Of a stretch of DNA of 64,000 nt, positions 40,201-60,272 are shown one piece after another; position 1 is the first letter of the stretch; the number at the start of each line of letters is the position of its first letter. The translations under genes were made by a program, and so were the position numbers. The stretch comes from Candidatus Omnitrophota bacterium (GTDB taxonomy: Bacteria > Omnitrophota > Gorgyraeia > Zapsychrales > Fredricksoniimonadaceae), in the NCBI GenBank assembly GCA_015232565.1, contig JADFZK010000003.1, positions 64,540-128,539 on the forward strand, given 5' to 3'. The notes under the pieces are model-generated. The model was not told where the DNA came from and made no database searches. It saw only the letters and a program-made list of their open reading frames with translations.

Positions 40201-43200
40201 GCATTTTCGCTAATATCCGTAGAATTATCCGCCACACCAAAGCGCCAGCCGGAACCAATAAAATTCGGCAAACCAAATGCGTCTATAAAAGATGCCTCGG
40301 GCCGGGTCCAGACAGTGTGTGTAGGCGATACCTGGTCCTGATATTTCCCCTCGATCTCAACCGACGTCATTTCCTTGGCCTGGCCAAAGAAAGGCACATT
40401 GGTAACCAGTTTACCGTTCTCGTCCCGGGTTTCCCAGTTTTGGCCATTCCAATCAAAAGCCGCGCCCTTTGGCGCTTGGGCATAACCCGGTGTCCGGACA
40501 ATTCTCTTTATACCATCCAGCTCATCCTCAAACACTTGTTTATCAGGGTCAAAGGTCAGCTCCGTGGCGGCAGTGCCTTTAATCCATGAAACCCGGCCAT
40601 TACTGTCGACCTCTTTACCGCCCTTGATCAAATACATGCTTTCAATAAAACCATTGATCAGCTCAAAATTACCCGGAACTTTAACCGCGTCCTCCGTTGC
40701 CAGCCTTTTATCGCCCACCGACCACGACTCGGGAGTTTTAGGCATCAGGGTGTTGCCGGTTAAAAGCGCCCGGCCTTTATCGCCCTCCAATGCAAAACCC
40801 ACCAGGTACGGAAACGCCCCGCCGTTAGGTAAATTTATCGGCCGGCCAAAAGTGCCTCTATTGCTGACGTCTTTGCTGGGAGGGCCCGGCAACTCATTAG
40901 TAGTTATAATATTGCCGTGGCTTAAATAACCCTCGGTGGTTATCGAGAACGGCTGGATACGATCGATCACCGGCTTATCGCTTTGCGATTTGTCGGGATC
41001 AATATTATCCAGCCCCACCACAATGCCGGCTTTATTCTCTGCCGAGAAATCGGCCGACCAGCGCGGCTGGCTCGGGAATACATTTATGCCTGCGGCATCG
41101 GTTTGAGCCTGAAAATATTTGCCGCTCTTGACCACCAGGCTGGCACGTCCTTCCGGGTCTACCCCGATATATGAATGCGGCTTATCACCACCGGTAACAA
41201 TATCCAGCCCGTACACCATGGCCGCCCCGGTCAAAGCCGCCGAACCATATCCGTTCCCACCCTGAACAAACGTGGGAGAATATTTCACGCTCACTCCCTC
41301 ATTAAAGAGCGGCATATAAAAAAATGTATCGGTGGGAGCTTCGTCCTTGAATAGAGTCCGGGTGTCGCCAACCGTTTCACTGTTGAGGTCTTTACCCTTC
41401 TTGCCCAGGATATTCACCTGCGATTGCTGTCCGGCAAAACTGGAGCCGCGGCTTGCGTCCCGCAACCAGCCCGCCAGCTCCGCAAAATCACTCCCCATGT
41501 AACTGTTATAATTACCGGAAGCTTGGTCGCCAAAGAAGTCCGCACCGAAAATTGTAGCAAAACCGGTAAGGCCGAAAGCTTTAAGGTCATAAAGACGACG
41601 CCCTTCACGAACTATGTTCAGTGAACGCCCCGCCCCGCTGGCCAAAGACAGGTCGAAGGTGGATTTACTGCCAGTCAGCACAAAATTCCGAATGAACGCT
41701 TTTTGGGTGTCGCCCAGCTTGCTAAGGTCGGTAAGCCCCTTGGCTTCAAGATCCAGGGTCATGGGCCCGCCGGCCAGGTTCCTGCGGGCGCTGACTTCCA
41801 ACTTGTTATCTCCGACCACGCGAAAATCATCGGTAGTAAGGTCCAAAAGGTTGCGGCCCGCTCTTTTTTCCCGGTACACATTGCCGAAATCCATACCGTC
41901 CAGCGAACCGCGGAAAGTGCTAGTGCCCTGGTAAAAGAAAAGCCTCCCGTAAGAGCCATCTTTTACCGAAGACTCATACGTATAAGGCTCGTCTTTTTCC
42001 TGGGGTGCCGGCTTTTGCGGAACAGGCGCAATTGCAGTATCATCTGGCTTGTCCAGCCGATAATCATACCCGGAATATATACCCGAAGAAGCCGCCATAT
42101 CCTGCGCATTGACCCCAGGATACATGTACGAAGAAATATCCTGCACCGGGGCCACCGGCTGATCCTGGGGCTTGACGGCGGCCTGAACCGGCGGACGGGG
42201 AGCTGGCAGATCCTTCAGATTCAGAGAACCGCCCTCGGAATCGCTTACAAACAACTTGTCTTTGCCAGCAACCTTAACAGTGGTAAGCATGTTATTTGAA
42301 ATATTGCTGGTAAACGACCGCCAGTAACCCGGCTTACCCTGCCGGGATTCAAAGCCTTCATTTACGACCTGTTCATGTGGAACGAAACCCTGCGTTATGG
42401 GTTTCAGATTATCTTCTTTATCCCTTAAAGGATCGCCATACAAGTCGTCCTTAAACGACTTGTCGCGCGTATATTTACCATAGCGCATACCTTTGGCGTC
42501 GATACTGACCGGCACGTTTATAGTTACCGAATCCGCCGCGTACAAACTTTGGGCATAAGCCTGTCCGCCCAGGCCCCACAAACCGTTCTGGCCGGCCTTG
42601 CCCAGCACCGCCACTGAAATAAGCTGGCGCATTACGTCTTCCCTGGTACCGTTATTAAACATGGCCTGGCCACCAAACGAGTACACATCGCCTGTCTTCA
42701 AAGGAAAAGCCCCGCAACAATAATGCAAAGCGCTAAAGTCAGCCGAAAACCGACTCCCCGGAAGATACCCGTTACCATCATCCTTGCGGTCCTTTACCCC
42801 GGTGAATTGAGCGACCATTTTGTAACCACTATCATTATAGAACGTGGTTATACTGCGATTGCCTTCGGTGGTCTTGGCGCCGGTAAAAGTTTTATCCATG
42901 CCCAGGGGGCCGTTCTTTACATTCCTGCGGGCCTGTTTCTCGAGCTCTTTATCCGAATACTCGGCGCCTATATCCAAAGCTTCCAGCCGCCGGACCTCGG
43001 CCCTGATCAAAGCCGGGTCTTTGGCGCGCTCGGCCAAATTCTCCACCGCCTGCTTGTACAAAAGCTTGTATTCGGTAGGCTCAACACCATACATGGCATC
43101 CATTTTTCTCAGCCGCCGGATCTCGTCCTCCAGAGCCTTGGAATTCACCGCCTGCTGATCACGCAGACGCTGATGCGCCATAGACAAAGCGCCGGTCGAG

Positions 43201-46200
43201 ACCGCCGCAATATCCTGCCCGAACACATATGTGTTCGCCATCTTCACTATATTACCGAACGAGGCCGCACCTACCTGCGAATACTGATCGCTCCGGTAAT
43301 TCAGGCTGGACAGTTCCCAGCGCCGGGTAGAATCCAGGATCCATTGCATTTCCACGTCTTCATCACTACGGCGCTGATCGTCGGGCAAAGCGGCGTTGGC
43401 GGCTTTGGCCTCTTCCTTTTGCTTCTTCGCGGTAATAGCGGCCTGAATAGAAAAGCCCGACATACCCGCCAAATGCTCGCCAAAAGCCAGCATTTCCAAA
43501 GGATTAGCGAAACGAAAACTGGTCTGGGAATTACCAAATTCGAGGTACCGGGTGCCGTAAACAATGTCTTTACCCATTACAACTTGAGAAAAAAGAGCGT
43601 CCGGAACCGCATTGTCACCGGGAAAGATTATGCCGTCCAGAGCCGCAACCGCCCTGGCCTTCTCCAGCGGTTTGGCCCCATTATCCTGGGCCCCCTTTGC
43701 GGCTTGATCATGAGTATAGCCATTGTCCGCACTTCTGCGCTGGATCTTGCCCTTGTTCTTTGGGTCATTGCCAAAGATAATCGCTTTATCCCATAATTCC
43801 CGAGCCTCGGGATGATCCTCGGCAAACTTGCAATCCCAAAGATCAAGTTTTTCGTCCACCTCACTCTTGATACTGGAATAATCATCCTTCTTCGCCAGAA
43901 TTGCAGTTCTTTCTTCCTCGGTTTTCGCGGCCATCAGTTTAGCTTTGTCATCAGGAGTTAAGACGCTGGAGAAATTGTCTACTGCCTCCCGAACATACTC
44001 ACTTTGCGCCTGGTCGCGCTCTTTCATATATTGATCCGCCAGCCGTGCACCCTGCCGCACATCTTCGTTGATCTTGGGCTGGTCCAAAGCATCCAAAGCC
44101 CCCAGCGTAACACCGGCCATAAAATTAGCCATCGTGCCCGCCACTATATTGTATTGCGCCGCCAGATAAGCATGGTTACGGGACTGATCATCTTCGCCGA
44201 TGATCTCTTCCCGCAAAGTGTCAAAAGCCCAGGCCGAAAGCGAGCTTAATACCGCGCTTCCCACGCGCACCTTGAGGTTGTCCCACACACTACCGGGGCC
44301 TGCGGCCAGTCGTTCGCCCGGGGTTTGCATAAGGTTACCCGCGCCATAGGAAACCACCCCCGCCACACCCTGCCCTACCGCTTTGGACGCCAAAGACTCC
44401 GGATCACCGCCCACCAGATAACGCGCCAGACCGCCCGCCAACTGGCCAATAGAACTTTGCGCTCCGGCCCGGGCAAAGCCCTTTAAAGCCGTCCAGACAT
44501 TGCTCCGGGAAAAAGAAATCTCCGACCTCGCCAGCCGGTCATTAGCCACCGCATCCCGCGCGGCCATGACCTCAGGTTTAGACACATCCAGCTTGCCGTC
44601 CTTAAACATGCCGTTCAGATCGGTCACATGAGCCTGCATTTTGTCCAGGCCTTCCAGCCGGGTCATCTCTAGTGTTTCCTTTTTGGTAAGGCCAACCTCG
44701 CCATCAAAAATGTTAGCGTCGTCTTGAGTTTTAAGTAAAGCCAGCCGTTTCTGGGCGTCATTGTCCATAAGGTTTTTGAACTTGCCGGCTTTTTGCTCCT
44801 TCGCCATATCGCCGGCGATCTCATTTTTGGTAATTTGCTCGGATTCCGCCAAAAACGCTTTGCCGGCGGCATCTCTTTGCCCCTGGTTAAAGTCCCGGAA
44901 CTCCGGGCTGGCCAAGATTTCTTTGGCCAATTTCTGATCGTGCTGGGCATCCCCGGTTCTTTCAATAAGGCGGTCGTTTACCTTATCCGCACCGTTTATG
45001 GGTTTGCCATTATCATCGAATTCCGGAACGAACTGATCCTTGGATTTCACAATGGCTTCGTTCTCAGCCGCTTGCTCCCTGGAGGCATCCTGCATAGTGT
45101 CAGTCTGCACCCCCACCATATCTTTAAAATAAGTAATATCGTGCCCGGCAACCTGGGCGGCCACGGCGTCAAAGGCCACCGCGGTTCCGGTAATGGCCAG
45201 GCCGGCGGCCAGCGAACCGGCCACCCCGCCTATCGTCTGGCTGGCAATGATACAACCCTTGTCGTCCTTGTCGCAATCAAAAGTCTCGGCTATAACCAGC
45301 TGAACCTCGTAGCTTACCCCAGCGCCTACCAGCGCTACTGCGAAAGACGTGGCAAAATCCTGGACCATACCGGAAGCAAAACCGGCCAGAGCACTGGTCC
45401 CGGCGTCCTTGGCGTTCTCGATCCCCGATACTCCGCCGCTCACACCAACGCTCAAGGCTGTACTTAAAGAAATACTAAGAATGGTTCCCGTCTTTTCCGA
45501 ACAGTTGCCCGACATTACGCAAGCTTGCGCTACCGCACCTACGAATTTACTGATCCCGATGCTCGCTATGGCCATGGCGATCACGGTTTGTATTTTGGTC
45601 GCGATCATGCCCATCTTGGCCAGGAAGATCAGGATCTTTTGGATCGCGTTAAGTGTTTCTCCCGCTTTTTGAGCCGCTATGGCGGCATTCGCCGCACCGC
45701 TCAAAGCCGCGCCCACGCCAAGGGAAACCACCAGCATGGCAAAGCTCAACCCCACATCGGTCCAGATCTGGCTGGTGCTCACCAGGCCCGGCAGGTCGCC
45801 GGAACGGTCGCGCCACTTGTTGCCCCACACAAAAGTAAGGGTGGTGTCGTCCACCGCGGTAAAATCCGCCCGCACAAAAGTGCCCATGTCTTTCGCCAGC
45901 GCAAAACCGGAGAGTTTGGCAATAAATTCGGCTTTGGGGCTTTGGCTGATCTTGCCGATATCGTTAAAGAAAACCGTGTCTTCCGTTACCTTGGTGACCG
46001 TAACGAAGTGCTCCTCTTTAAAATGCGCCACGAACGGCGTGCGGAGTTTTACCACATCATCCGGGGCCAAACGGGCACCGCTGTATTTCAGGCCGAAAGC
46101 CTTGGCGGCCTGGCTGATTGAAAAGAGGGAAATCTTAAGTTTGGGTTCCCCGGCCTTGATAACATTGCTCAAAAGGTCGGTAGAAATGGTAAGCACCGCC

Positions 46201-46913
46201 AGCTCTTCCAGCGGCTTATTTATCCCGGCATTAGCCAGAATGTCCTGCAGAGCATAAACGCCGCAATTCAGCACGTTCAGGCTGGGCTTATTAAGCCATA
46301 CAGCGATATCTTTGATTTGCGTGGGCGTAAACTTGGCCAAAGCGTTGATCAACAGCGCTTTGCCGTCTTTTTTCTGGTCGTCAAGTCTAAGCGATACGCT
46401 CTCGGCCTTCTGGCGGTTAACGTCGGTCAGCAACTGGTCCACACTGCCCGCTACCTGGCGAGCGGCCAGTTCGGCCGGGGTAATATCCGGGTTCTGCATT
46501 ACCAGCGGAGCCTTGTTGCCCCAGATAATGGCCGGATTATAGTTAAACGCCCAGCTGATCTGGTCGGGGATGAAAACACAAAGCACCGTAAGCGCAATAG
46601 CCCGGATCCAGTTATTGAACCGGGAAGCAAACTGACCTTCCGGGTAACCGGCCGTTACACCTTCGCCAGCAGGAGGAAACTGATCGCCACCCGGCACGTT
46701 AGCATTATAGCCAGCAAAACCGGCGCCAGCCAGGTCCGGAAATTGCCTAACCAGCTCGGAATCCGAAAGTTGCACATTGTCATTTGCCGCAGAGGACGGC
46801 TCAACCGGGGAAATTTCAGCAGATTGGGGGAGGGCAAAAGAAGAAATATCCTCTTTATTATTAAAAGAAGATTCAGAATTGTTAGAAGACTGTGGTTTAC
46901 CGTTTTCAGTCAT
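1..46913 (-). CDS. Giant multidomain protein, partial. The N-terminus is in the window; the C-terminus runs past the window start. At least 15,637 codons.
   Basis: No stop is reported in minus frame 2 (coordinate 46913 mod 3) across 46.9 kb. All listed minus ORFs in 1-46913 lie in the other two frames, and the plus ORFs are short antisense shadows. ATG at 46911-46913 follows an in-frame TGA 48 nt upstream. GC3-rich codon periodicity holds throughout. A reverse-complement read gives continuous protein-like sequence with domain motifs. Confidence 0.8.
9060..9900 (-). other. Clan GH-A (GH5-like) TIM-barrel glycoside hydrolase domain within the giant protein
   Basis: …[19 protein letters not shown]… carries the NEP acid/base motif (codons at 9586-9606). 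…LNWYRH… follows, then …[12 protein letters not shown]… carries the nucleophile motif (codons near 9285-9300). The spacing is typical of GH5-type enzymes. Confidence 0.55.
13600..15430 (-). other. Low-complexity Ser/Ala/Val/Asn region followed by a Pro/Ala/Thr-rich linker (15160-15430) in the giant protein
   Basis: The translation shows …[23 protein letters not shown]… repeats and …[43 protein letters not shown]…. The DNA has imperfect 24-bp tandem repeats at about 14590-14720, and the Arg-rich plus-strand shadow ORF 15162..15380 overlaps it. Confidence 0.55.
21850..22100 (-). other. Degenerate M23/LytM-like or hybrid-barrel segment
   Basis: …[73 protein letters not shown]… follows the M23 beta-barrel spacing but lacks the HxH metal ligands. 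Confidence 0.25.
24000..24480 (-). other. GNAT-like acetyltransferase segment
   Basis: …[82 protein letters not shown]… has the beta-strand/V-shaped fold pattern and an R/Q-x-x-G-x-G/A acetyl-CoA motif (KLGLGAAL). Confidence 0.4.
25626..25640 (-). other. HExxH (HELMH) zinc-metallopeptidase-type motif
   Basis: Minus-strand codons CAT GAG CTT ATG CAC at 25626-25640 give …[16 protein letters not shown]…. This is a motif only. Confidence 0.25.
29330..29370 (-). other. P-loop-like motif (LAMAGGKTT) resembling helicase / SecA motif I
   Basis: Codons GGC GGT AAA ACC ACG at 29343-29357 on the minus strand give GGKTT. The surrounding sequence is …[42 protein letters not shown]…. Confidence 0.25.
32150..33330 (-). 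other. Ala/Pro/Val/Gly-rich low-complexity linker of the giant protein
   Basis: Minus-strand translation is dominated by AP/APA/PAV repeats (…[32 protein letters not shown]…). The plus strand here gives the A/G-rich shadow ORF 32665..33561. The DNA is built from GCC/GGC/GCG triplet runs. Confidence 0.6.
45100..45800 (-). other. Cluster of hydrophobic segments (predicted transmembrane anchor region) after the peptidase-like domain
   Basis: Long runs of A/G/V/I/L-rich segments (…[20 protein letters not shown]…, …[21 protein letters not shown]…, …[14 protein letters not shown]…) read between verified landmarks at 45748-45812 and 45098-45146. Confidence 0.4.
45950..46330 (-). other. Papain-fold (C39-like) cysteine peptidase motif region at the N-terminus of the giant protein
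   Basis: Read on the minus strand: ...[16 protein letters not shown]... (Cys codon at 46263-46265), then about 80 aa later ...[21 protein letters not shown]... (His near 46010). The spacing and context match a C39-type Cys/His dyad. Confidence 0.4.
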
Positions 46914-47074
46914 ATTTATACCGAGTTTGTGAAACAATGGAAGTATAGCACATATATGCTGTCAAGCAAATTTTTGGCAAAAATAAATGCCCTCACAACC
47001 CATTTCTCAACAATGCCTTACATTCCATGCAGAATCTTTTTTCCAAAAAAAATTGCATTAAATCTCTTAATATA

Positions 47075-49439: not shown

Positions 49440-49560
49440 GAATCGAGAGCTCGTCGATCGTAGGGGCCGACCTTGTGTCGGCCCGGCACAAGATGCGCAA
49501 CGACCTGCAATTGCTTCTCCGCCGGGCGGACATAAAGTCCGCCCCTACGAAAACGATAAA
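49440..49560. repeat. Structured intergenic element with nested inverted repeats (CGTAGGGGC…GCCCCTACG; GGGCCGAC-N5-GTCGGCCC)
   Basis: The inverted repeats are read directly between 49360 and 49613. The element shares the CGTAGGGGC / GCCCCTAC arms with the 28-bp palindrome at 59280-59307. Confidence 0.35.
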
Positions 49561-49613
49561 TCCTCTCGACTTGCTAAACAAGTACAAACGATTAATTTTC
49601 TCGCTGAACATCT

Positions 49614-49967
49614 TCAATTAACCTTGCACCCGTTTAGACAGGCATGCATTGCTGTGTTGGTGCATAGGATGTAATTGATACTGCTCTTGCAACCGCTTAC
49701 AGCATGCTGATGGTCGTAGCAGGCCTGCGAATACCAGATATCTTCCTTGTCGTCGTAAACGCAGGCAATGGTATCGTTTGGGTCGTACTGCCGGCCAAAA
49801 GCAAAGCTTTCCCCGGCGGTCGCCATCTGGCCCTGGTAAGCCCGCTGAATATAACCCCGAAAAGCGAGCAGGCAGGAGATGACCACAATGATCAGCACCA
49901 TGTACTCCACCAGGGCAAAAGCTTTTTTGGGCACGGTTGTTTTTATCATAGTTAATGCGTTGGACAC
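49614..49967 (-). CDS. Pilin/pseudopilin-like protein with a Cys-rich C-terminal half
   Basis: The N-terminus …KKAFALVEYMVLIIVVISCLLAF… is a class-III-type leader. The C-terminal 70 aa hold 8 Cys. The overlapping alternative-frame ORF 49618..49974 is Arg-rich junk. Confidence 0.5.
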   Translation of the reverse strand: MSNALTMIKTTVPKKAFALVEYMVLIIVVISCLLAFRGYIQRAYQGQMATAGESFAFGRQYDPNDTIACVYDDKEDIWYSQACYDHQHAVSGCKSSINYILCTNTAMHACLNGCKVN

Positions 49968-52435
49968 GCCTCATTACACTTGATATACCTCATTCTATAA
50001 CTATTATCTTCCACAAAATACTCGGCACAAACCTCGGTAACATAACCCTGCCGAATAGCAGCCTGCACCGCGTCGGCACAATCCAGCCCGTACTTGTTGG
50101 TATAGTCGTCGCCTTTGTTGATCATAAAAGAAGTTGGTATGTAATAAGGCTGGCCGCCGATCTCCACTTTGTCGTGGTTAAAACAGGCCTCCAGATTTTC
50201 CAGGGGCGGTTTCATCTCATTGGCCGGATGGCCGGTAAAGATACCCCAGAACGGCAAACCACCCACAAAAGTCAAGGCCTTGCTGATCCGGTTCTCATCC
50301 CAGCGCGTAATACGCACCTTAACGCACCCGTTGCCGTCGGTAAGCGTATAACAGCGCCCCATCTCGCCGGATTTCTCCGACTTGACCCAGGGAAATTTAA
50401 CCGCACCGCAAGAACGCGCCACACCCCCGCGCTCCCGGCTCCACCATTCACAACGCTTGGGCGTAGCCACTTCCACCTTAACCACGTGGCGATAGCCGCG
50501 GTCCCGGGTTTGGGCCGCCGCCTGCCAGCCATAGATCACGTACGGGCTGATGGCCACCACGTCCTCGATCTTCCGGGCCTCTTCAAAAAGGTACTGTAAA
50601 TATGCCAGGCGGTCATTGGCGGTGCCCATCTTTTCCGCGCACAGGTCGGGATCCCTGGCCGTCTCGCAAAAGAACACCTGGTTAGCGACGTCAAAATTGT
50701 TCACAAAGACCGCGGCGTTATCCGCGGCTTTCTGCAGTTCCACCGTACCCTCGCCCACCAGGGTAAACCCGGTAGTTACTTCCGAACTGGTCAGCATGCC
50801 ATTGATCATGCTGAAGTCCCTCTTGAGCATTCTGAAATTAGCCATCGCGTCGTTAAATTCTTGCGCAAACATATCAGGCGAGACCATAAAAACCTGCTCG
50901 GCATACGGGGTATCAAACGCGCGCATGACCATCGAAGTATTACGCAGGTTATTCACCATCTGGTCGAAGCGATCGCCTTTCCATAATTTCTGGTCCGTAA
51001 CAAGCGGGCTTTTACACTCGCACACCCTGTCGGCCTCCCTGTTTCCGTCGGCATCAGTGGTGATCTTGGTAGTGTCGCACCCCATGGAAAAAGAACAATT
51101 CGACGAATGCGGCGCGGAATAAAAACCGTCCGGAGTTTCATTGCTCTCGCAAAACCGGTCATCTCCCGGGCGCCAGCGGTTATTAATCCCGGGATCCGTC
51201 CTGAGGATGTCCAGCGTGCTATCCAAGCTTAATCTCATATCCGACGGACAACCGGCCAGATCCGGGCTCTCGTAGAAATATTTCATCCGCACACGCTTAT
51301 CATCAAAAATATCCATCGGCGCATTTATCGGATCCTGCCTGTGCGCCTCAATGCTCTTGTCTGTCGCCGCTTTCAGGTTCCACATAAAACTGAACAAAGG
51401 CCCCTGCTCCGGCTCAGCCTGCCTGACCTCAGCGCCGTTGTCGATCAAGATCACCCGTTCCCGGCCCACCAGCGCGGCCACAGTAGTGTTGTCCCCGGTG
51501 ACCACGCCATTTACCGGCGCAGAAGACAAACACCGCAAAAGGTCTTCGGCATAAGGGAACCCCTGATATGGCCCCTGGTTGCAAGTGGATCCCCACGCCA
51601 TTGCCGTCTGATCGGACGCTATGGTGACCGAAGCCTGAAACTGACATTCCTTTTTACAAGAACTTTCCGCACAACAGGTACCCACTTTGCCTTGATCCAG
51701 GCCCAGGTCACGCGCAAAATCAGACAACTCTTCGGTGAACTTGTCGAACTTACTGGGCGCCAGCGAAACACTCTTCAGGCGATTGGTGTAATGATAACTG
51801 AAGCGGGAGATCATTTCCCTGGGATCCGAGCCCGGCTGACTCGCCACGTTCCATTTACCGTTCATATTGTAATCCAGCAAGTCGGGGATCTCTACCGTAT
51901 CGGTGTTCACGGCCTGAATAGCTGCCTGCACCGCCGCTTCCAGGTACTGGTCTTCCACGGTAGGAATGTTATTCTGCAATTTATTCCACATTGAAGTGAT
52001 CGTAGGTTGAATATACGCGAGCTGTACCGCTACCGTGGCGGTGGTCAAAACCAGGGCGGTGGTTAACCCGACTGTTACCGCCGTCACAACTTTAGCAGAT
52101 ACCATGCACCCCCAAGCCATTCCATACGCCGCCGGTAGAATAACCAGAAAGGCAATCATAATTATGACTATTATGATGATCATGATAATGAGAGTCAGAA
52201 CCCCGTTCTGACTGCATTTCTGGGCCTTGCCCTCCAGCTGGGTTTGCATAATATTCTCGCCATAGCTCGCCATGCGCGACACCATCGTTGCGGCCGTAGT
52301 AGTGGCGGCCACCTGGGCCTGGGTTTTAAACTGCACCGCCTCGCTCCAGTTCATCACCATGGCCATAAACACCAAACCCAGCGCTATGGCCACAATGAAC
52401 AACATGGAGATCTGGGCTTTATTATTGCGCAGCAT
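49952..52435 (-). CDS. Large (827 aa) membrane-anchored, Cys-rich pilus-associated protein (TadG-like by architecture)
   Basis: The N-terminus is MLRNNKAQISMLFIVAIALGLVFMA (a pseudopilin-like TadE/G N-terminal segment). A second hydrophobic run is followed by a long Cys-rich extracytoplasmic region. The gene is translationally coupled on both sides (1-nt overlaps). Confidence 0.4.
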   Translation of the reverse strand: MLRNNKAQISMLFIVAIALGLVFMAMVMNWSEAVQFKTQAQVAATTTAATMVSRMASYGENIMQTQLEGKAQKCSQNGVLTLIIMIIIIVIIMIAFLVILPAAYGMAWGCMVSAKVVTAVTVGLTTALVLTTATVAVQLAYIQPTITSMWNKLQNNIPTVEDQYLEAAVQAAIQAVNTDTVEIPDLLDYNMNGKWNVASQPGSDPREMISRFSYHYTNRLKSVSLAPSKFDKFTEELSDFARDLGLDQGKVGTCCAESSCKKECQFQASVTIASDQTAMAWGSTCNQGPYQGFPYAEDLLRCLSSAPVNGVVTGDNTTVAALVGRERVILIDNGAEVRQAEPEQGPLFSFMWNLKAATDKSIEAHRQDPINAPMDIFDDKRVRMKYFYESPDLAGCPSDMRLSLDSTLDILRTDPGINNRWRPGDDRFCESNETPDGFYSAPHSSNCSFSMGCDTTKITTDADGNREADRVCECKSPLVTDQKLWKGDRFDQMVNNLRNTSMVMRAFDTPYAEQVFMVSPDMFAQEFNDAMANFRMLKRDFSMINGMLTSSEVTTGFTLVGEGTVELQKAADNAAVFVNNFDVANQVFFCETARDPDLCAEKMGTANDRLAYLQYLFEEARKIEDVVAISPYVIYGWQAAAQTRDRGYRHVVKVEVATPKRCEWWSRERGGVARSCGAVKFPWVKSEKSGEMGRCYTLTDGNGCVKVRITRWDENRISKALTFVGGLPFWGIFTGHPANEMKPPLENLEACFNHDKVEIGGQPYYIPTSFMINKGDDYTNKYGLDCADAVQAAIRQGYVTEVCAEYFVEDNSYRMRYIKCNEACPTH

Positions 52436-52668
52436 TATTTGCCTTTCTTGAAAAGCGCCGCATCCAGCGGCCGCGGGCGGTGAAAATTCGGGTTGAGCTG
52501 GCCGTCAAGCGGGCCAGCGGCGGTTAAAACCGCTTCGTGGTCGTAACGGCGTTCGGCCAGGTCCATCATTATCCAGCGCACAGTCTGCACCATCCCGAAA
52601 AGCAGTAACATAAAGACCGCGCAAGCAAAACAAAACTCGATAATGGATTGCCCTTTAGCGCCGCTCAT
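52435..52668 (-). CDS. Small TadE-like pseudopilin (77 aa)
   Basis: MSGAKGQSIIEFCFACAVFMLLLFGMV has a G-x4-EF motif followed by a hydrophobic helix. Confidence 0.45.
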   Translation of the reverse strand: MSGAKGQSIIEFCFACAVFMLLLFGMVQTVRWIMMDLAERRYDHEAVLTAAGPLDGQLNPNFHRPRPLDAALFKKGK

Positions 52669-54176
52669 TTTACACCCAGCAGTTTTTCAGTGCGTTCGGT
52701 ATCTATATTCCTGATCCACATTCGGCCGCGCTCATCTGTTAAACGACTGCGAATGAACAAGGTACGGCTGTTCATGTCGAAACAGGTTAAAAGCACGTTC
52801 GGCACCGAACGCTTTGTTTTAATAAGATCCGCTACAGTATTCATACAACAGCCGCCCTCCGCCGGAGGCGTAAGCTGTGGATAAAGAGGCTTTTCCTCGG
52901 TAGACGGCTCGCTCTGACAATAAGCTTCTACCGACCCCGGGTTCCTTTCCACAAAGTTCCACGGATCGATCATCTGGCGGTTCAATTGCCAGGTGCGGGA
53001 AATAAAATCCCTTTGTTTCTTCTTGTTAACGCTCATCGCCAGCTTATTGGTATTCGGCAGGAAAGCCTGGCCGTTACGGATCTCCATCACGGTGCCGTCT
53101 TTTAGTTCGGTAAAGATCTGCGCGTCCATCTTGAGCCCCGGAACATCCCGGGCATTATCATAACGTTCCGGGCCTTCACCGGCCATATCGCCGGCGCTGT
53201 AATCCTGGATAGCCAAGTCGAATACCGCCTCCCCTTCACATTTAGTCTTGCTGGTATCCTTCGCGGCAGCCGAAAAAACCGATTCTTCCACCAGATCCCC
53301 GTTCACATCCGCCTGCTCATTCTGATTTTCACCGTCATGGGCGTTAACATCCCCCGCCAGCTCCCAGCGCCACAAAGCTTTCTCCAGGCGTTCATTCCTT
53401 AAATTCGGGCGGCTCCAAAGGTCATCCGTTAAAAAATCGTTACGATTGTAGTTGTACTTCCAATCGTAAAGAGCCTTGTCCGAATCGGCGGCAGTAGCTT
53501 CCGCATCAAACCAGCCTTTATTGCCGTTGGCCTTAATAGCAAAGAAAGTAGGCGCCGCCTGTCCGGCCGGCCATTCCCGCTTAAGACGGGCAAAAGCTTT
53601 TTGATTGTCGACAAAAGGCCGGCCTTCCTCACAGATCGGCAGTTTCTCAGCGTCATAGAACCAGGTAGTGGTAACCGTGCCATCCGGCTTCTTGCGCAAC
53701 CGCAACACATAAGCCGCCGAACCGGTAAGCTCAAAAGTCTGGCCATTCACCGTAAGTTCGGTGACCCCTATGGCGTTTTTCTTCGGATCGCTTACGTCTA
53801 TCCACTCTACCGGGTACATCAGCCCGGTGGTCAAACTCCCCGACCCCGACATAATAGCCGGCCGGCGATCCACCGCACCATACTTTGCCAGTCCCGGTGA
53901 AAGCCGGTCCTGCACCACATGAATGCTGACTGATTGACGTTTGAATACCTCGGGTCCGCTGTCCTTGCTGATATACTTGGTGGCCATATACGATTTCAAC
54001 AAAGCCATGCGCATAGGCTGTAACTGGGCCTGCTGGTATTCCATACTGGCATACCCTTGCTGAAAGATAGACCCCACCACGAAAATAAAAATAGACCCGA
54101 ACACCGCCAGCTCAATTATAGCCTGGGCACGCCGGGACAAAACAGCTTTGGGGGAGGCCGGTTGATCACTAGTCAT
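52665..54176 (-). CDS. Large (503 aa) protein with a pseudopilin-like N-terminus (TadE/TadF-like)
   Basis: …RRAQAIIELAVFGSIFIFVVGSIF… lies at the N-terminus and the rest is soluble. The stop and start are coupled to both neighbours. Confidence 0.4.
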   Translation of the reverse strand: MTSDQPASPKAVLSRRAQAIIELAVFGSIFIFVVGSIFQQGYASMEYQQAQLQPMRMALLKSYMATKYISKDSGPEVFKRQSVSIHVVQDRLSPGLAKYGAVDRRPAIMSGSGSLTTGLMYPVEWIDVSDPKKNAIGVTELTVNGQTFELTGSAAYVLRLRKKPDGTVTTTWFYDAEKLPICEEGRPFVDNQKAFARLKREWPAGQAAPTFFAIKANGNKGWFDAEATAADSDKALYDWKYNYNRNDFLTDDLWSRPNLRNERLEKALWRWELAGDVNAHDGENQNEQADVNGDLVEESVFSAAAKDTSKTKCEGEAVFDLAIQDYSAGDMAGEGPERYDNARDVPGLKMDAQIFTELKDGTVMEIRNGQAFLPNTNKLAMSVNKKKQRDFISRTWQLNRQMIDPWNFVERNPGSVEAYCQSEPSTEEKPLYPQLTPPAEGGCCMNTVADLIKTKRSVPNVLLTCFDMNSRTLFIRSRLTDERGRMWIRNIDTERTEKLLGVK

Positions 54177-54499
54177 TAATAATGCCCTATTTGCACGCCG
54201 CCATTCTTGGTTTCCCGGGAAGAAGCCACGTCAGAACGCATGGTATAATAACCTGCCACGCCCTGATTACCGCCGCGGATGGTCTGCACCCGGGATTCGG
54301 AATTGGATTCGATCCGGTGCGTTACCACGCTGTTGGTCTTCTCGGGGTCGTACTGGTCGCCCAGGCCGTCCACGGAATCTTTCCAGCGCCCCTGGATGCC
54401 GCGCTTAAGATAAGTGTTCATGCTGATAAGGGCCGCAATAATGACCACTACCAGGATAGTGTATTCCAAAAGGCTTTGTCCCCGCGCCGAGATCCGCAT
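54176..54499 (-). CDS. Pilin-like protein (107 aa) with a GQSLLEY leader
   Basis: MRISARGQSLLEYTILVVVIIAALISM shows a GXXXXEY motif plus a hydrophobic helix. Confidence 0.55.
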   Translation of the reverse strand: MRISARGQSLLEYTILVVVIIAALISMNTYLKRGIQGRWKDSVDGLGDQYDPEKTNSVVTHRIESNSESRVQTIRGGNQGVAGYYTMRSDVASSRETKNGGVQIGHY

Positions 54500-54519
54500 T
54501 CCGCCTCCTTTAGCAAGCG

Positions 54520-54864
54520 TTACTCATCTTTGGTAAAACCCATATTCGTCAACGAATTGGTCAACGAAACGGTTTCTTCCACGGTCCTTACATTCCGCGC
54601 CCACATGGTTTTATTCATCGCCATGAAAGTGTCTTTCTGCGAGTTCGCCCGGGTATTGGAATAAAAATACTCGGTATAACCGCTATCGGCGTTGAAATCC
54701 TGCTCGGAATTCCTCTGCACGCCGATCTGGTCCGCCCCGGCCTTGATAAGGCTTTGGGTGCCGCGCTTGACCATCGGGAACATCATCGCCACGGCCGCCA
54801 CCACAATGGTGGCCATCACCACATATTCACCAAGGCTCTGGGCTTTGTTTTTTAGCTTGAACAT
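54520..54864 (-). CDS. Pilin-like protein (114 aa)
   Basis: MFKLKNKAQSLGEYVVMATIVVAAVAMMF is a class-III-type leader. Confidence 0.5.
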   Translation of the reverse strand: MFKLKNKAQSLGEYVVMATIVVAAVAMMFPMVKRGTQSLIKAGADQIGVQRNSEQDFNADSGYTEYFYSNTRANSQKDTFMAMNKTMWARNVRTVEETVSLTNSLTNMGFTKDE

Positions 54865-54903
54865 AAAAGACCTTGTGGCCGTTGGGCCCCAACCTTCAAC
54901 TGC

Positions 54904-55260
54904 CTATTTCGACATATAGGGCGCCAGCTGGTTGCTGGACATGCTCATGCCCTGCTCGGTATTAATGATCTTGTTATACGCCCCGCCGGCGGCCAGGAAC
55001 GAATTGTCCTTTTGGTAACTGTCGATATTCGCCGTCGACTCCACGTAATAGGGCTCGTATTCCATGTTCACCTGGACCGTACCTTCCAGCGCGTTAGTGG
55101 CCTTGACCATCACCCAACGCTGGGTGTCATGAGTGCGGGCCTGCAAAGCCCGCCGGATATACGTAGACATTACTGTGATCGCGATCACGATCAGCACCGA
55201 CGCCACCACATATTCCCCGCTGATGGCCTGCCCTTTTCTGGAATAAAAATTTTTTAACAT
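54904..55260 (-). CDS. Pilin-like protein (118 aa)
   Basis: MLKNFYSRKGQAISGEYVVASVLIVIAITVM. Confidence 0.5.
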   Translation of the reverse strand: MLKNFYSRKGQAISGEYVVASVLIVIAITVMSTYIRRALQARTHDTQRWVMVKATNALEGTVQVNMEYEPYYVESTANIDSYQKDNSFLAAGGAYNKIINTEQGMSMSSNQLAPYMSK

Positions 55261-55297
55261 AAGGCCGCCTGAGAAGAAAAATGTATCCGACGATTAA

Positions 55298-55328
55298 TTC
55301 CCGAAGGGGATACCTGCCCCCTTCGGGA
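55298..55328 (-). terminator. 12-bp perfect-stem hairpin (TTCCCGAAGGGG / CCCCTTCGGGAA, 7-nt loop) 46 nt after the stop of the 108-aa pilin gene. It is a likely attenuator or terminator.
   Basis: The inverted repeat was checked base by base. It lies between pilin genes 55374..55700 and 54904..55260. Confidence 0.35.
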
Positions 55329-55373
55329 ACTAAAGCCGGTGAATTATACTTTCACTAACAACCTGGTAAAACT

Positions 55374-55700
55374 TTACGGCATGTATTCAGCGCCGTCACC
55401 CGTCGTCATTCGCACATTAGTAATAACGTTAGTTGTCATCTGAGCGCCAGCCTCGCTACGCTTACCGGTCATCGCGGTACCAGCCAGATTATTGCTGTAC
55501 GTATTGCTGATCGACACCGTGGACTTGTAATAATTTGCCCCGGTGGAGAACTGATCACCAATATCGTCGGTAGCGCTTCTTAAGCGGCCCTGTACGCCTC
55601 TTTTAACATAAGTGTTCAAACTCAAGAGCGCCGCGATAATGATAATTATTAGGATCGCGTACTCCAGCGTGCTCTGGCCCTTACTATTTTTTTTCATCAT
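55374..55700 (-). CDS. Pilin-like protein (108 aa) with a GQSTLEY leader. It is a candidate major subunit because of the downstream hairpin.
   Basis: MMKKNSKGQSTLEYAILIIIIIAALLSL shows GXXXXEY. Confidence 0.55.
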   Translation of the reverse strand: MMKKNSKGQSTLEYAILIIIIIAALLSLNTYVKRGVQGRLRSATDDIGDQFSTGANYYKSTVSISNTYSNNLAGTAMTGKRSEAGAQMTTNVITNVRMTTGDGAEYMP

Positions 55701-55744
55701 AAGCTTTCTCCATAATAAAGACTTTAGTAAAAATTATCTCCGTT

Positions 55745-56152
55745 CTATGGTGCAACCCCTTCACCCTCTACCCTGCCGACTTGAGTCGGAGCCGCGGTAG
55801 TTTCAATCTGCTCGATCTTGTTAGTGAACGTCGATCCATTTGCGGTAAAAAGATCTTGCTCCTTGTTCTGGATAGCAGTACTGCTCTTGTCTACTTTCTC
55901 GTCTGTATTGGTGTAATAAGGCTCATACTGCAAAGTAGCATACTGAGCGCCAAGCCCGATCTCAGTGCCACCCACCCCGCCCGTACCGGCGCTGGTCTTG
56001 GTAGCCATAAACCGGCTGGTATCGCGCACACGCGCCTGTAAAGCCCGCTGGGCATAGGTCTGCATAGCCACTACACCGCCAATTACCAGCGCGATCAGAA
56101 TGGCGTATTCCGCCGTATTCTGGGCTTTTTTATTTCGGATATTTTTTAGCAT
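55745..56152 (-). CDS. Pilin-like protein (135 aa)
   Basis: MLKNIRNKKAQNTAEYAILIALVIGGVVAM. Confidence 0.5.
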   Translation of the reverse strand: MLKNIRNKKAQNTAEYAILIALVIGGVVAMQTYAQRALQARVRDTSRFMATKTSAGTGGVGGTEIGLGAQYATLQYEPYYTNTDEKVDKSSTAIQNKEQDLFTANGSTFTNKIEQIETTAAPTQVGRVEGEGVAP

Positions 56153-56197
56153 GCACAGCTCCTTCTAAAAAACCACGAACTGGTTATAGTTCCGTTA

Positions 56198-56431
56198 CTA
56201 TTCTGTTGCCGTAGCCGCCGTTTCATCAGCCCCCGCAAAAGTAGTGCCGATCTTGCCACCCATCTCATTCATAGTATTCGTACTTGACGTAAGCGTGCTG
56301 TTCAAAGCCGTCCTGAAAGGCGAACTATTGGAGCCTACGAACGCAATAATGGCAATGACCACCGCTGTCATCAGAATGATGTACTCCAGCGTGCTTTGCC
56401 CTTTCTTGACCTTCTTTTTTTCTTTTAACAT
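56198..56431 (-). CDS. Flp-type pilin (77 aa). I trimmed the start from the track ORF to the internal Met, which has a GGAGGG Shine-Dalgarno upstream.
   Basis: MLKEKKKVKKGQSTLEYIILMTAVVIAIIAFVG shows GXXXXEY. The ATG at 56429-56431 is preceded 8 nt upstream by GGAGGG. Confidence 0.5.
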   Translation of the reverse strand: MLKEKKKVKKGQSTLEYIILMTAVVIAIIAFVGSNSSPFRTALNSTLTSSTNTMNEMGGKIGTTFAGADETAATATE

Positions 56432-56468
56432 TGTCTGTTCCCTCCGTTTTACCGCGTATGTATAATGA

Positions 56469-56621
56469 CTATTCCCTCGAGTATTCTTCTCCGATGTCCT
56501 TTTGTTTGGCCTGTACGGCCCGATACACATAGGTGCTCATGGCAACCACCGCCGCCGATACGATCGCAACGACAAGGCAATATTCAACAAGATTCTGCCC
56601 CTGGCAATTTTTTATCCTCAT
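56469..56621 (-). CDS. Unannotated 50-aa Flp-family-like pilin sORF, below the track length cutoff
   Basis: I translated the minus strand by hand: MRIKNCQGQNLVEYCLVVAIVSAAVVAMSTYVYRAVQAKQKDIGEEYSRE. The GQNLVEY motif, a TAG stop at 56469-56471 and an AGGGG Shine-Dalgarno-like element upstream support the call. Confidence 0.45.
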   Translation of the reverse strand: MRIKNCQGQNLVEYCLVVAIVSAAVVAMSTYVYRAVQAKQKDIGEEYSRE

Positions 56622-56700
56622 CGCGCGCCACCCCTGTGAACAAAATACATCTGGCCGGGGCTTCCTTGAACATCACTGCGAAGCGAGAATGTTCCCGGCT

Positions 56701-56729
56701 ATTATACCGCCCCGGGTTACCCCGGACGG
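56701..56729 (-). promoter_or_regulatory. Putative promoter for the Flp-like sORF, with a perfect TATAAT -10
   Basis: The minus-strand TATAAT sits at 56701-56706 about 80 nt upstream of the ATG. A small CCGGG-TTAC-CCCGG hairpin lies in the spacer. The -35 is weak, and an AT-rich tract lies upstream. Confidence 0.3.
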
Positions 56730-56889
56730 CCCGCAAATAATATCAAACAAACTTTATTCGCAGTACAACCCCGCTTTAAACGGAGCCGAAAGGCGTTACG
56801 GCACACCCCTTCCATACAAGCGTCACCAAAGTATAACATATGAAATTGAACGCCGCAATGGTGAAAACGAAATTAGTTTTGTGGAAAAG

Positions 56890-59145
56890 TTAAAGTGTAA
56901 AAACTATGCGGCGGCCATCGGCGGTTTTGAAAAAAGCGGCGTTAAGCGAACTTAAAATAATAGTTAATTGCGGCTGGTAAGCGTAATCTTCCGGTAACTG
57001 AAAACGCAAGAAAACGGTATCAGGGTGTTCCTGAATGTAACCAGAGAGGTCGTAAAGCCAGTGGCACATTCCCAGCCAGGAAAGCGCCTGACAGGTGGAA
57101 TCCAGGAAATATTTCCGCAGTAAAACATCAACTTCCCTGATCACAGCCGAAATACTGCCTATTTGTGGAGCAAAAGACAGCGCTTTACCCTCAATTAGCT
57201 GGCCGCATCCCACATCAGAGGCGATAGTAGAATTGAATAATTGCCGGAAAATATCTTCCGCACCGCACTTTTCAGCCGGAATATTTGACAATAATACAAA
57301 TTCTTCCCCCCAGCCTTCCGGCTTGACTGTTAACACCCTTAATGGCTGATCCGCCCCCTCGACCGCCAGCGCGCCTTCAAAATATCCGCAGGACCTGTCC
57401 GCTATGGGGTCGAAGTACGCGCGGTGATTGTCGATCATTTCGTATTCCACGCGGGCCATTTCGCTTTCGGAAAGGCGCACCCGCAGAATAAAATCCCGAC
57501 GGATAGCCGGAATGGACAGAAATTCCGCGCATTTGGTGTCATTATCGCCAATAAGCTCCAGGGAACCAAAGACGTCCTCACCGCGGCCGTCCATTAAACG
57601 GATAAAAGCCAGCAGTTCCGGCTGTAGGCCAAAAGCGGGCACATTGGCCATTACCGGCTGCATATTGGTGATAATGCTGTCGACCGCCCGCTCGACCGCC
57701 ATGAATATTGGCAAAGCGGCCGCCGGGGACTGGCCGAATACCGAAGCCTGGCCGGCGTCGATGAATTCATAATTCAGGGCCGGTAAGGCGGCATCCAGAT
57801 AAAAACGCGCGCCTTTAGCCGACAACAGGCGGAAATATTTCACCGGCGTGAACGCCATGGTAAGCTCGGTATGTATGGCCGTGCAAAGGGTTTTGTTATT
57901 TTCCAGGACGAACGCTTTATCTATGATCGCCCGGCCCTGCCGGTCTTCCAGCCCGGCCAGCCGCCAGAGCGTCGAGAGGTCATTGGATTCAAAACCAGGG
58001 CGATGTTCCGCGAACATATCCGCAAAAAGTACCGCTTCACATTGCGCCGAAGTTACGCCCTCCGGCAAAGCGCCCAGCTCGCGGGCCAAGGCCTCGCCCA
58101 AACGACAGGAAGAACAAGCCGCCTGAAAAGCGTACCAGAGCGCCGCCGCCCCCAGCCGCCCGTAAAGCTTGCCCACGTTCCCCAGCCAAAGCGCCGAACG
58201 CTCCCGGGCCTTCTCCTCTTCCCGCTCCCGGGCGCGAATGCCATCCTCAACCTCAGCCTGCACCTGTTCAAAGGAAGGCGTGCCAAAAACGGGGTCCGGC
58301 ATCAGCCGGAGAGCCCGATCGTCAGTCAACGCATTGACCGGCTCCTCAGAGTTAGCGGTCGCAGGCGTTAAGGCCTCCGGCGCCGCCAAACCAGGATCGC
58401 GCTCCGGGACCGACATGAAGGGGTCTTCTGGCTCAAGCGCCGACTCAGGCGCTATTTCCTGAGTCAGATCATTCTCAATAGGTTGCGATACAACGGGTTC
58501 TGTTAATGGCTCAGGCACTGGCTGGTCCGAGTTAAGCTCGGCCCCTACGGCCAATGAGGCTTCCGGCTCGATCGACTGATCCGGAGCATTCTCAATAGGT
58601 TGCGGCACAATGTGTTCTGCTACTGGCTGGGCACATTTATTGGGCGAATCTTCGGCTCGTGAAGTATCGTCAGATTGCCGGGCCGACACCAGGTCGGCCC
58701 CTACGGCCAATGAAGCTACCGGCTCAATCCCGGTTTCCAATGCAGCCCCGGCAATGGGATTCAGCGACTGGTCGGGCTTAGCCTCTGGGGCTCTGTCAGT
58801 TTCCGCGATCATCTCCGGCTTTGGCTTGACTTCCTCAAAAACCGCGGGCACCGTTACGGCGGGGACTACTGCCGGCAAGAACATTTGGACATTCTTCAGG
58901 AGTATGTCCTTCTTGTGCTGGGGAATAGCAAAGTTCTTGGGGGCTTTATATATGGAATGCCGGCCGATCGGCCCGCTCAGCCTGGCTTGCTTTAAAACCG
59001 CATTAACCGAGGATTTGGACACCTCAAAATTGAACTTATCCTTGATCATTTTAACCAAACCGCGGCAACTCAAAGAATGGTCGGTCCTTTTAGTTTGGAC
59101 AATAAAGTCAACAATATCCTGCCGCAATTTGTAAGCTACACCCAT
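56890..59145 (-). CDS. 751-aa protein with an N-terminal HTH-like domain, a long acidic Pro/Glu-rich tandem-repeat region and a C-terminal globular domain. Function unknown.
   Basis: …LRQDIVDFIVQTKRTDHSLSCRGLVKMIKDKFNFEVSKSSVNAVLKQARL… is HTH-like. The repeats IEPVASLAVGADLV / IEPEASLAVGAELN produce DNA repeats at about 58537-58580 and 58693-58735. No DDE triad is recognisable. Confidence 0.5.
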   Translation of the reverse strand: MGVAYKLRQDIVDFIVQTKRTDHSLSCRGLVKMIKDKFNFEVSKSSVNAVLKQARLSGPIGRHSIYKAPKNFAIPQHKKDILLKNVQMFLPAVVPAVTVPAVFEEVKPKPEMIAETDRAPEAKPDQSLNPIAGAALETGIEPVASLAVGADLVSARQSDDTSRAEDSPNKCAQPVAEHIVPQPIENAPDQSIEPEASLAVGAELNSDQPVPEPLTEPVVSQPIENDLTQEIAPESALEPEDPFMSVPERDPGLAAPEALTPATANSEEPVNALTDDRALRLMPDPVFGTPSFEQVQAEVEDGIRAREREEEKARERSALWLGNVGKLYGRLGAAALWYAFQAACSSCRLGEALARELGALPEGVTSAQCEAVLFADMFAEHRPGFESNDLSTLWRLAGLEDRQGRAIIDKAFVLENNKTLCTAIHTELTMAFTPVKYFRLLSAKGARFYLDAALPALNYEFIDAGQASVFGQSPAAALPIFMAVERAVDSIITNMQPVMANVPAFGLQPELLAFIRLMDGRGEDVFGSLELIGDNDTKCAEFLSIPAIRRDFILRVRLSESEMARVEYEMIDNHRAYFDPIADRSCGYFEGALAVEGADQPLRVLTVKPEGWGEEFVLLSNIPAEKCGAEDIFRQLFNSTIASDVGCGQLIEGKALSFAPQIGSISAVIREVDVLLRKYFLDSTCQALSWLGMCHWLYDLSGYIQEHPDTVFLRFQLPEDYAYQPQLTIILSSLNAAFFKTADGRRIVFTL

Positions 59146-60264: not shown

Positions 60265-60272
60265 GAAGCTCC

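Follow-up and report, generated by a model that had tools for sequence, protein, structure and literature searches.

We analysed a window of 64,000 nucleotides (64 kb; contig JADFZK010000003.1) from a bacterial metagenome-assembled genome (MAG) of Candidatus Omnitrophica, which carries a tandem array of seven genes for small pilin-like proteins. All seven open reading frames (ORFs) were present on the minus strand, exactly at the coordinates given in an initial annotation of this DNA, and were named in transcription order as F7 (56469..56621, 50 aa), F6 (56198..56431, 77 aa), F5 (55745..56152, 135 aa), F4 (55374..55700, 108 aa), F3 (54904..55260, 118 aa), F2 (54520..54864, 114 aa) and F1 (54176..54499, 107 aa). 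The GenBank annotation covers the whole array (HQL20_01310 to 01340), with F4 100% identical to HQL20_01325. The 50-aa ORF F7, previously described as unannotated, is already deposited as MBF0386482.1 / HQL20_01340 ('hypothetical protein'), and its orthologs have been called as genes in other assemblies. Downstream of F1, four further genes with leader-like N-termini (T503, T77, T827 and T117) precede two platform genes and a giant gene; the genes, promoters and hairpin described below are likewise on the minus strand. We built one hidden Markov model (HMM) per position and scanned 27 species-representative GTDB loci, which came from Omnitrophota or from MAGs labelled Planctomycetales/Elusimicrobia; single loci are cited by number, L001 and L003 being close relatives of the window.

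A Flp-motif scan, which had been suggested as a check, was run over all six frames of the 64 kb using a Met followed by 2–20 aa, the motif [GA]x4-5E[YF] and an 18-residue hydrophobic stretch, with 20 Markov-randomised sequences as the control. The scan returned nine ORFs, all inside this cluster on the minus strand between 49.6 and 56.6 kb, and none in the randomised DNA. The two positive ORFs beyond the seven were those at 52435 and 49614. Together with a gene at 52665 they had already been listed as pseudopilin-like, and all three proved real, with leader-like N-termini; a fourth (49952–52435, 827 aa, beginning 'NKAQISMLF…') had been overlooked. In total, the cluster has eleven leader-bearing genes; they keep a constant order, evolve under purifying selection and lie between genes for Tad assembly and the giant gene.

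Every pilin N-terminus consisted of a short basic leader, the motif [G/A]-Q-x-x-x-(x)-E-Y and then about 20 hydrophobic residues. GXXXXEY or GXXXXEF leaders had been claimed for all seven pilins. The strict GxxxxEY form was found in four of them (F7, F6, F4 and F1, at 56469, 56198, 55374 and 54176), whereas F5 and F2 (55745 and 54520) carried AxxxxEY and F3 (54904) carried GxxxxxEY, in which one additional residue moves the Glu to +6. Glu-Tyr and Gln+1 were thus present in 7/7 window pilins, Glu+5 in 6/7, Gly−1 in 5/7 and Ala−1 in 2/7. The same pattern extended to about 180 orthologs, with K or R at −2, G or A at −1 according to the preference of the family, an almost invariant Gln at +1, and Glu at +5 in all families except F3, where it stood at +6 in 12 of 14 sequences. 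Both in the window and across these orthologs, the leader agreed with the Epd type, which is defined as 5–13 aa ending in Gly, followed by Gln+1 and Glu+5, apart from the Ala−1 variants and the shifted Glu of F3. It was not of the GspG-K type, as residue +1 was Gln rather than Phe and there was no G/F-T-L-x-E leader. An identical description has been given for the DUF361 pilins of Methanococcus maripaludis, where it possibly reflects a requirement of EppA (PMC3875500). An Epd-like archaeal ancestor has been proposed for Tad (Denise et al. 2019, PMC6668835), and the Epd-like Gln+1 signature combined with the bacterial Flp Glu-Tyr pair, as read from these sequences, would fit such an ancestry.

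F7 (MRIKNCQG/QNLVEY…, the slash marking the predicted cleavage site) comprised an alpha-helical stretch only, and was the only member both Flp-sized and Flp-like; it is also the first gene of the array and has the lowest dS. Against the Pfam family Flp_Fap (PF04964) it scored 24.6 bits (E = 2e-5), under the gathering score of 32.2, and the same family was matched by 19 of the 22 F7 orthologs (E ≤ 0.01), which are 49–56 aa long and come from 22 loci. The ratio of nonsynonymous to synonymous substitution rates (dN/dS) of F7 between the window and L001 was 0.14. The proposal that the 50-aa ORF is a Flp-like gene was borne out by these values. The F7 profile gave just weak N-terminal matches to Geobacter PilA-N (E = 0.03) when compared with PDB. 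F6 (…KKG/QSTLEY…; orthologs 56–77 aa), named 'class III signal peptide-containing protein' in GenBank, matched Class_IIIsignal (PF04021, the archaeal DUF361/UPF0333 family) with 24.7 bits, over the gathering score of 23.7.

The five longer pilins showed family-specific motifs. F5 (…KKA/QNTAEY…) has a QYEPYY motif and F3 (…RKG/QAISGEY…) an EYEPYY motif, the two being paralogs by family alignment (hhalign). F4 (…SKG/QSTLEY…) contains KRGVQGRL…DDIGDQF and F1 (…ARG/QSLLEY…) contains KRGIQGRWK…GDQYDP, and F2 begins …NKA/QSLGEY…. F4 had 917 homologs at E ≤ 1e-3, some with the source names 'Flp pilus assembly pilin Flp' or 'UPF0333'. Its score against PF04021 was 17.1, under the cut-off of 23.7; among 104 F4 homologs, 17 matched Class_IIIsignal (E ≤ 0.01) and 9 matched Flp_Fap. 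An AlphaFold model of F4 built with the 104 homologs had an N-terminal helix (residues 11–50) and, behind it, four short strands, giving a pilin-like shape (mean predicted local distance difference test score, pLDDT, 65). A Foldseek search with this model against PDB gave no match with E < 4, and an F4 profile search of PDB gave none. Beyond F7, the other six pilins did not match PF04964, and PF04021 was matched by none beyond F6 and F4. An NCBIfam search of the pilins returned nothing significant, the prepilin/pseudopilin models reaching only E = 0.03–0.1.

The four genes after F1 continue the same series, and from F1 through T117 the genes abut or overlap. T503 (52665..54176, 503 aa) has a TadE-like leader (RRA/QAIIEL…), and its start overlaps the F1 stop, a position kept in relatives. 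T77 (52435..52668, 77 aa; AKG/QSIIEF…), called 'pilus assembly protein' in GenBank, is a TadE-like minor pilin that scored 24.8 bits against TadE (PF07811), over the gathering score of 22.9. T827 (49952..52435) has a leader without Glu (NKA/QISMLF…), and its homolog search returned just three proteins; its size and position suggest that it may be TadG/KilN-like. T117 (49614..49967) encodes a Cys-rich pseudopilin of about 106–117 aa (KKA/FALVEY…) with an uncertain start codon, and its exact 117-aa form had no entry in the protein collection. T503, T827 and T117 all lacked a Pfam match and all shared leader-like N-termini and conserved positions. Next come a TadB-like gene (48502–49359) and a TadC-like gene (47584–48483), each with one T2SSF domain (Pfam E about 1e-17) and both kept downstream of the pilins in relatives. 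The giant gene (1..46970 including its promoter, ATG at about 46913) has more than 15,600 codons and extends beyond the left window end. Genes for proteins of 36,327 and 24,895 aa occupy the same position in relatives. The plus-strand 'ORFs' listed over the giant gene are antisense artefacts, and an alternative genetic code as the explanation of the gene-poor 1–47 kb was rejected, this region being a single giant minus-strand ORF.

The order F7-F6-F5-F4-F3-F2-F1-T503-T77-T827-T117 was retained in about 14–16 of the 27 loci, and four of the 27 had a more divergent array. In close relatives, the pilins measure 50, 62–68, 118–120, 104–109, 99–116, 107–109 and 107 aa, followed by proteins of 474–522, 77–87, 809–879 and 114–120 aa, two T2SSF genes and the giant gene. 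Because this order is conserved across species-level loci, each position can be treated as an ortholog group, and each window pilin was much closer to its positional counterpart in other species than to its neighbours. In profile-profile comparison, homology linked all seven families over their first ~50 residues (probability 94–99.9%), the C-terminal parts being related solely for F5–F3 (98.6%, hhalign) and F4–F1 (96.8%). Every gene had a dN/dS within 0.08–0.31 in the comparison of the window with L001, and the loci showed no sign of recombination cassettes or silent copies. By these sequence comparisons, the seven genes are distinct, anciently diverged ortholog families in a fixed order across the phylum rather than the product of a recent burst of paralogs. 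This argues for non-redundant functions, for example as major, adapter and minor pilins.

Duplications followed a consistent pattern. An extra F6-F5-F4 triplet, duplicated as a unit, was found in L005, L014 (twice), L015 and L018, and L025 had a partial extra copy, F6-like, after the F4 hairpin. F7 was not duplicated, save for a truncated second copy in L005. The joint duplication suggests that F6, F5 and F4 act together. Upstream of the array, most relatives carry genes for a SurA-like peptidyl-prolyl isomerase (PPIase), RcpC, a TonB_C secretin, a TadZ-like ParA::T2SSE ATPase and a homolog of the 751-aa protein described below. The secretin with a C-terminal TonB_C domain (L017 2259–3959; L019 1893–3779) and the fusion of TadZ/ParA-like and T2SSE domains in an ATPase of ~720 aa (L017 4030–6195; L019 3807–5966) are both unusual for canonical Tad. 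Judged by gene content, this upstream block and the cassette together are a Tad-type machine in the relatives. In the clade of the window, the cassette does not adjoin the PPIase-RcpC-secretin-ATPase block; of the tad-locus gene set, the TadB/TadC-like genes are inside the window, and RcpC, secretin and TadZ::T2SSE are adjacent solely in relatives.

A hairpin with a 17-bp stem and a 6-nt loop (55294..55333) lies between F4 and F3 as a putative terminator or attenuator. The initial annotation had reported a 12-bp-stem hairpin after the 108-aa gene; this proved real, as a perfect 12-bp core (55298–55329) within the longer stem. For the 113-nt F4–F3 spacer, the folding energy was −46.3 kcal/mol (z = −5.3). 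The F4/F3 junction of about 19 related loci also contained a strong hairpin (−24 to −37 kcal/mol, 13–22 bp) of differing sequence, mostly followed by a U-run. At the other junctions, the median best-hairpin ΔG was near zero (n = 31 for F6/F5, 31 for F5/F4, 21 for F7/F6, 20 for F2/F1 and 14 for F3/F2), and in duplicated arrays the hairpin stood after the last F4 (L018). Because the same junction folds in about 19 loci despite differing sequences, comparative evidence supports reading this element as a conserved terminator or attenuator. The hairpin had been regarded as the attenuator usually found after a major pilin gene. Its conservation at the junction agrees with this; the designation of the 108-aa gene as the major pilin does not follow, since four genes precede the hairpin and F4 is therefore not singled out.

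The stretch separating the hairpin from F3 is too short to accommodate a promoter in the window, L001 and L003, and expression of F3 and all later genes would therefore depend on read-through. In L001 and L003 the hairpin begins about 17 nt past the F4 stop. The sequence TTTACC-16-TATAAT between the F4 stop and the hairpin was considered as a promoter and rejected as a chance occurrence, being absent in L001/L003 and found in a scan at chance level; consensus scans of the region for promoters and terminators both remained at chance level. A separate observation concerns the terminator stem ACATGGCTTAC..GG / CC..GTAAGCCATGTTTT, which is common to several species-level relatives (L007, L011, L016, L018, L020, L023 and L024). 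The flanking proteins of the loci that share it are just about 50–60% identical, and the stems of the window, L001 and L003 are unrelated to it. This shared stem sequence, ACATGGCTTAC/GTAAGCCATGTTTT, could be a protein-binding inverted repeat. An Rfam search gave no match for the hairpin or the 5' leader at gathering scores (whole window) and none at E ≤ 1 in 46800–57200.

The candidate array promoter (56830..56858) consists of a −35 element TTGCGG (56858–56853), a 17-nt spacer and an extended −10 element TGTTATACT (56838–56830). It is located directly past the stop of the upstream 751-aa gene and ~210 nt 5' of F7, and the block is conserved between the window and L001. Of 22 loci, 17 carry the pattern TGnTA[TC]A[ACT]T ahead of their F7 ortholog, at distances of 90–385 nt from its ATG and in most cases together with a −35 that reads TTGACA exactly; the background frequency of the pattern is 0.1 per kb per strand. 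From this conservation we infer that the extended −10 element is the promoter of the pilin array. A TATAAT at 56706–56701, 80 nt 5' of the F7 ATG at 56621, had been noted as a −10 element of the small ORF. The hexamer is present as described. It was rejected as a promoter, as it has no −35 (match 2/6), reads TATACG in L001 and is situated inside the leader, ~130 nt downstream of the conserved promoter. The 5' leader (56622..56829, ~200 nt) is structured, with a minimum free energy of −80 kcal/mol over 204 nt, and its obvious sequence conservation is just that of the promoter and the Shine-Dalgarno region (CAC…AGGTG…CG-ATG). On its predicted fold, the leader is possibly a regulatory RNA.

A promoter of the same type precedes the giant gene (46970–46942; CTTGACA-17-TGCTATACT, with the −10 at 46942–46950), about 30 nt 5' of its ATG. 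The pilin array and the giant gene thus share a TTGACA-like −35, a 17-nt spacer and an extended −10 TGnTATACT. Four matches to TGNTATACT occur in the window, and the two on the minus strand are the array promoter and the giant-gene promoter. The shared promoter type may reflect co-regulation or no more than the usual form of strong promoters in the phylum.

We consider it probable, at roughly 80%, that the array supplies the major, minor and tip pilins of a Tad-like (type IVc) filament machine specific to Omnitrophota. The genes, their leaders, orthology, synteny, purifying selection and the conservation of the hairpin are established by the analysis. Cleavage, stoichiometry, the identity of the major pilin and the connection to the giant protein we infer, in the following scheme. 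The prepilins would be inserted in the inner membrane, where an A24-type prepilin peptidase encoded elsewhere would cut after the G or A at −1 and expose Gln+1. TadB/TadC and the TadZ-CpaF ATPase would then polymerise the subunits through their hydrophobic N-terminal helices with Glu5 and Tyr6, and the filament would leave through the RcpC/RcpA secretin, the parts not seen here being placed elsewhere in this MAG. Transcription would start at the extended −10 promoter ~210 nt 5' of F7 and would be terminated or attenuated by the hairpin after F4, because of which F7, F6, F5 and F4 would be made in excess as subunits of the filament body. F3, F2, F1 and the four T proteins would arise by read-through only, translationally coupled and at a low level, as adapter and tip pilins. 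The candidates for the major pilin are F7, as the first and Flp-like gene, and F4, which stands immediately ahead of the terminator. A more specific scheme, in which the cassette forms a heteropolymeric Tad-derived filament with F6-F5-F4 plus F7 as the repeating unit and exports, extends or anchors the neighbouring protein of 15,000–36,000 residues, is put forward only tentatively and seems to us rather unlikely.

Several observations weigh against assigning the array to a Tad-like filament. The short single-helix size of Flp pilins (about 50–90 aa) fits F7 and F6, whereas F1–F5, five of the seven, exceed it at 107–135 aa. Five of the seven pilins alone obtain no Pfam or NCBIfam pilin match, and the F4 model is of low confidence (pLDDT 65) and resembles no solved structure. 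The hairpin in the window has a poor U-tract (AAUUAAUCGU), with 3–4 U in the next 10 nt. The window contains no prepilin peptidase, ATPase or secretin. A search for the peptidase had been advised; neither the window nor any of the 10-kb flanks of the relatives yielded a Peptidase_A24, the upstream ORFs examined for it in the relatives being PPIase, RcpC and malate dehydrogenase.

The same genes could instead build a short periplasmic pseudopilus or piston, resembling that of a type II secretion system (T2SS), which exports, deploys or anchors the giant protein. The parts list would suit this reading equally, and we regard it as possible but less likely. The cassette always lies directly upstream of the giant gene, the promoter type is common to both, and the many minor pilins recall GspG-K. 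West-Roberts et al. interpret the locus as a secretion system (10.1101/2023.11.21.568195), and secretion systems arose repeatedly from type IV filaments (Denise et al., PMC6668835). However, the assembly parts are of the Tad type (RcpC, the TadZ fusion and split TadB/C) and not of the Gsp type, and there is no GspG-like G/FTLxE leader. Synteny is also no proof of a substrate relation, and the giant protein has no recognisable class III leader.

The array had also been taken to suggest filament heterogeneity or multiple filament types, on the ground of its large paralog set. Such a lineage-specific expansion of redundant paralogs, serving heterogeneity, antigenic variation or alternative filaments, would agree with seven homologous tandem pilins, with the additional F6-F5-F4 copies in L005, L014, L015 and L018 (partial in L025), and with the dispensability of some additional pilin-like genes for the main pilus in M. 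maripaludis (PMC3875500). We consider it improbable and disfavour the earlier suggestion, as seven ancient families stand in the same order phylum-wide, each position has its own ortholog family across species-level loci, the C-terminal regions are mostly unrelated between families, all genes are under purifying selection, and neither recombination cassettes nor silent copies were seen. That the small proteins are not filament subunits, and are membrane-anchored or secreted users of a class III signal peptide like archaeal bindosome substrates, is highly improbable: five of seven lack a significant pilin-family match and their C-terminal domains are of unknown fold, yet they are small (50–135 aa), keep Glu5-Tyr6 with the hydrophobic helix invariant and a TYxxRxxQ extension conserved, and sit between Tad assembly genes and beside TadE-like genes.

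Assigned to a Tad-like filament machine, the cassette can be compared with characterised systems. It shares with the canonical Flp/Tad systems of Aggregatibacter, Caulobacter and Pseudomonas the G/XXXXEY-type leader, a Flp-sized first gene, split TadB/TadC and TadE-like pseudopilins, and, in the relatives only, RcpC, an RcpA-type secretin and TadZ/TadA. It differs from them in having eleven leader-bearing genes compared with roughly 1–3 Flp plus TadE/F/G, in five pilins of 107–135 aa with additional C-terminal parts, and in a near-invariant Gln+1 with frequent Ala−1. Further differences are that the locus has no tadV, that TadZ is fused to the ATPase, that the secretin carries TonB_C and that the genes are linked to a giant gene.

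The best worked-out parallel, by analogy, comes from Myxococcus xanthus, a predator whose Kil Tad pilus has a major pilin, 59-aa all-helical Flp 'adapter' pilins and TadE/F/G-like heterotrimeric tips that include one very large pilin (PMC12075869). F7 (50 aa) would correspond to the adapters, and T77, T503 and T827 to the tips. The Kil pilins and tips are scattered over clusters and the tips are interchangeable paralogs, whereas the present genes form a single cassette of fixed order. In addition, kilK and kilO are weakly transcribed, whereas the Flp-like gene here comes first after the promoter.

The Epd pilus of M. maripaludis (PMC3875500, PMC6668835) shares the leader of 5–13 aa ending in Gly, Gln+1, Glu+5, the PF04021 matches, several minor pilins (essential in M. 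maripaludis) and two single-T2SSF platform genes; the present system differs in its bacterial host, its secretin and RcpC, the Tyr after Glu5 as in Flp, and a single pilin operon. As in GspG-K of the T2SS, an abundant pilin-like protein would be accompanied by several minor ones, and in one member (F3 or T827) Glu5 is displaced or missing, as it is in GspK. The leader type is different, however, the N-methyl-Phe motif is missing and the assembly parts are Tad-type.

The outline of the locus is already published. According to West-Roberts et al. (2023, 10.1101/2023.11.21.568195), the giant genes of Omnitrophota are preceded by a secretion-system locus that contains small genes with class III signal peptides, and Seymour et al. 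(2023, PMC10066038) document both Tad complexes and giant ORFs throughout the phylum. The flank analysis was repeated in a 2026 preprint, and the limonene-enrichment paper does not mention pili. Relatives also have the rcpC, secretin, T2SSE ATPase and Rotamase_2 PPIase genes that West-Roberts et al. name, the difference being that in the window's clade this block is not adjacent. The existence of a Tad- or T2SS-like locus whose small class-III-signal genes neighbour a giant gene is therefore not new, and the gain is incremental. The seven ordered pilin families with four TadE/F/G-like proteins, the Gln+1 signature, the post-F4 terminator and the shared promoter are not described in the portions of West-Roberts et al. 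and Seymour et al. considered here.

The genes upstream of the array are of other types. The 751-aa protein (56890..59145) has an HTH-like N-terminus, a long Pro/Glu/Ala-rich middle and a C-terminal domain of no known type. Its homologs lie immediately upstream of F7 in all inspected relatives, one with weak HTH_Tnp_Tc3_2 and HTH_32 matches, and the protein may be a regulator. An AbiE pair (59509–60929) follows, consisting of an AbiEii nucleotidyltransferase toxin (Pfam E = 2.5e-26) and, next to it, a gene of 218 aa that probably encodes the antitoxin. The pair lies between the pilin locus and upstream T2SS-like genes and is not at this site in relatives. These T2SS-like genes form a second type IV filament set (61000–63948), comprising a T2SSM/PilO-like protein of 177 aa, a PilM-PilN fusion of 471 aa and a T2SSK-like protein of 332 aa. 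The set differs from the Tad cassette and extends past the right window end, and its ATPase or peptidase might be just beyond the window.

Two intergenic regions near the cassette also stand out. The 254-nt gap between T117 and the TadB-like gene folded at −120.7 kcal/mol (z = −7.9) and contains an imperfect palindrome of ~163 nt (49425–49587). This palindrome occurs once in the window, is missing from L001, whose corresponding gap measures 33 nt, and may be an inserted palindromic element within the operon. The 670 nt that separate the TadC-like gene from the giant gene (46914–47583) are rich in repeats: a 53-nt unit occurs three times in tandem (47160–47318), a G/C-rich 39-nt unit able to form a hairpin occurs twice (47299–47337 and 47505–47543), and so does the palindrome TATTGTCCAGACTGGACAAT (47354–47373 and 47558–47577).

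Omnitrophota are abundant, uncultured and probably predatory or parasitic ultra-small bacteria, and their giant genes are among the longest known. Beside such a gene, the fixed set of seven pilins with four TadE/F/G-like proteins, the conserved promoter and the conserved terminator past the fourth pilin give testable predictions on subunit abundance, transcript ends and N-termini. If a heteropolymeric filament does serve the giant protein, a Tad pilus with Epd-like Gln+1 pilins would have evolved independently into a machine for protein deployment. A bacterial Tad system that keeps the Gln+1/DUF361 signature of archaeal Epd pilins also bears on the proposed archaeal origin of Tad.

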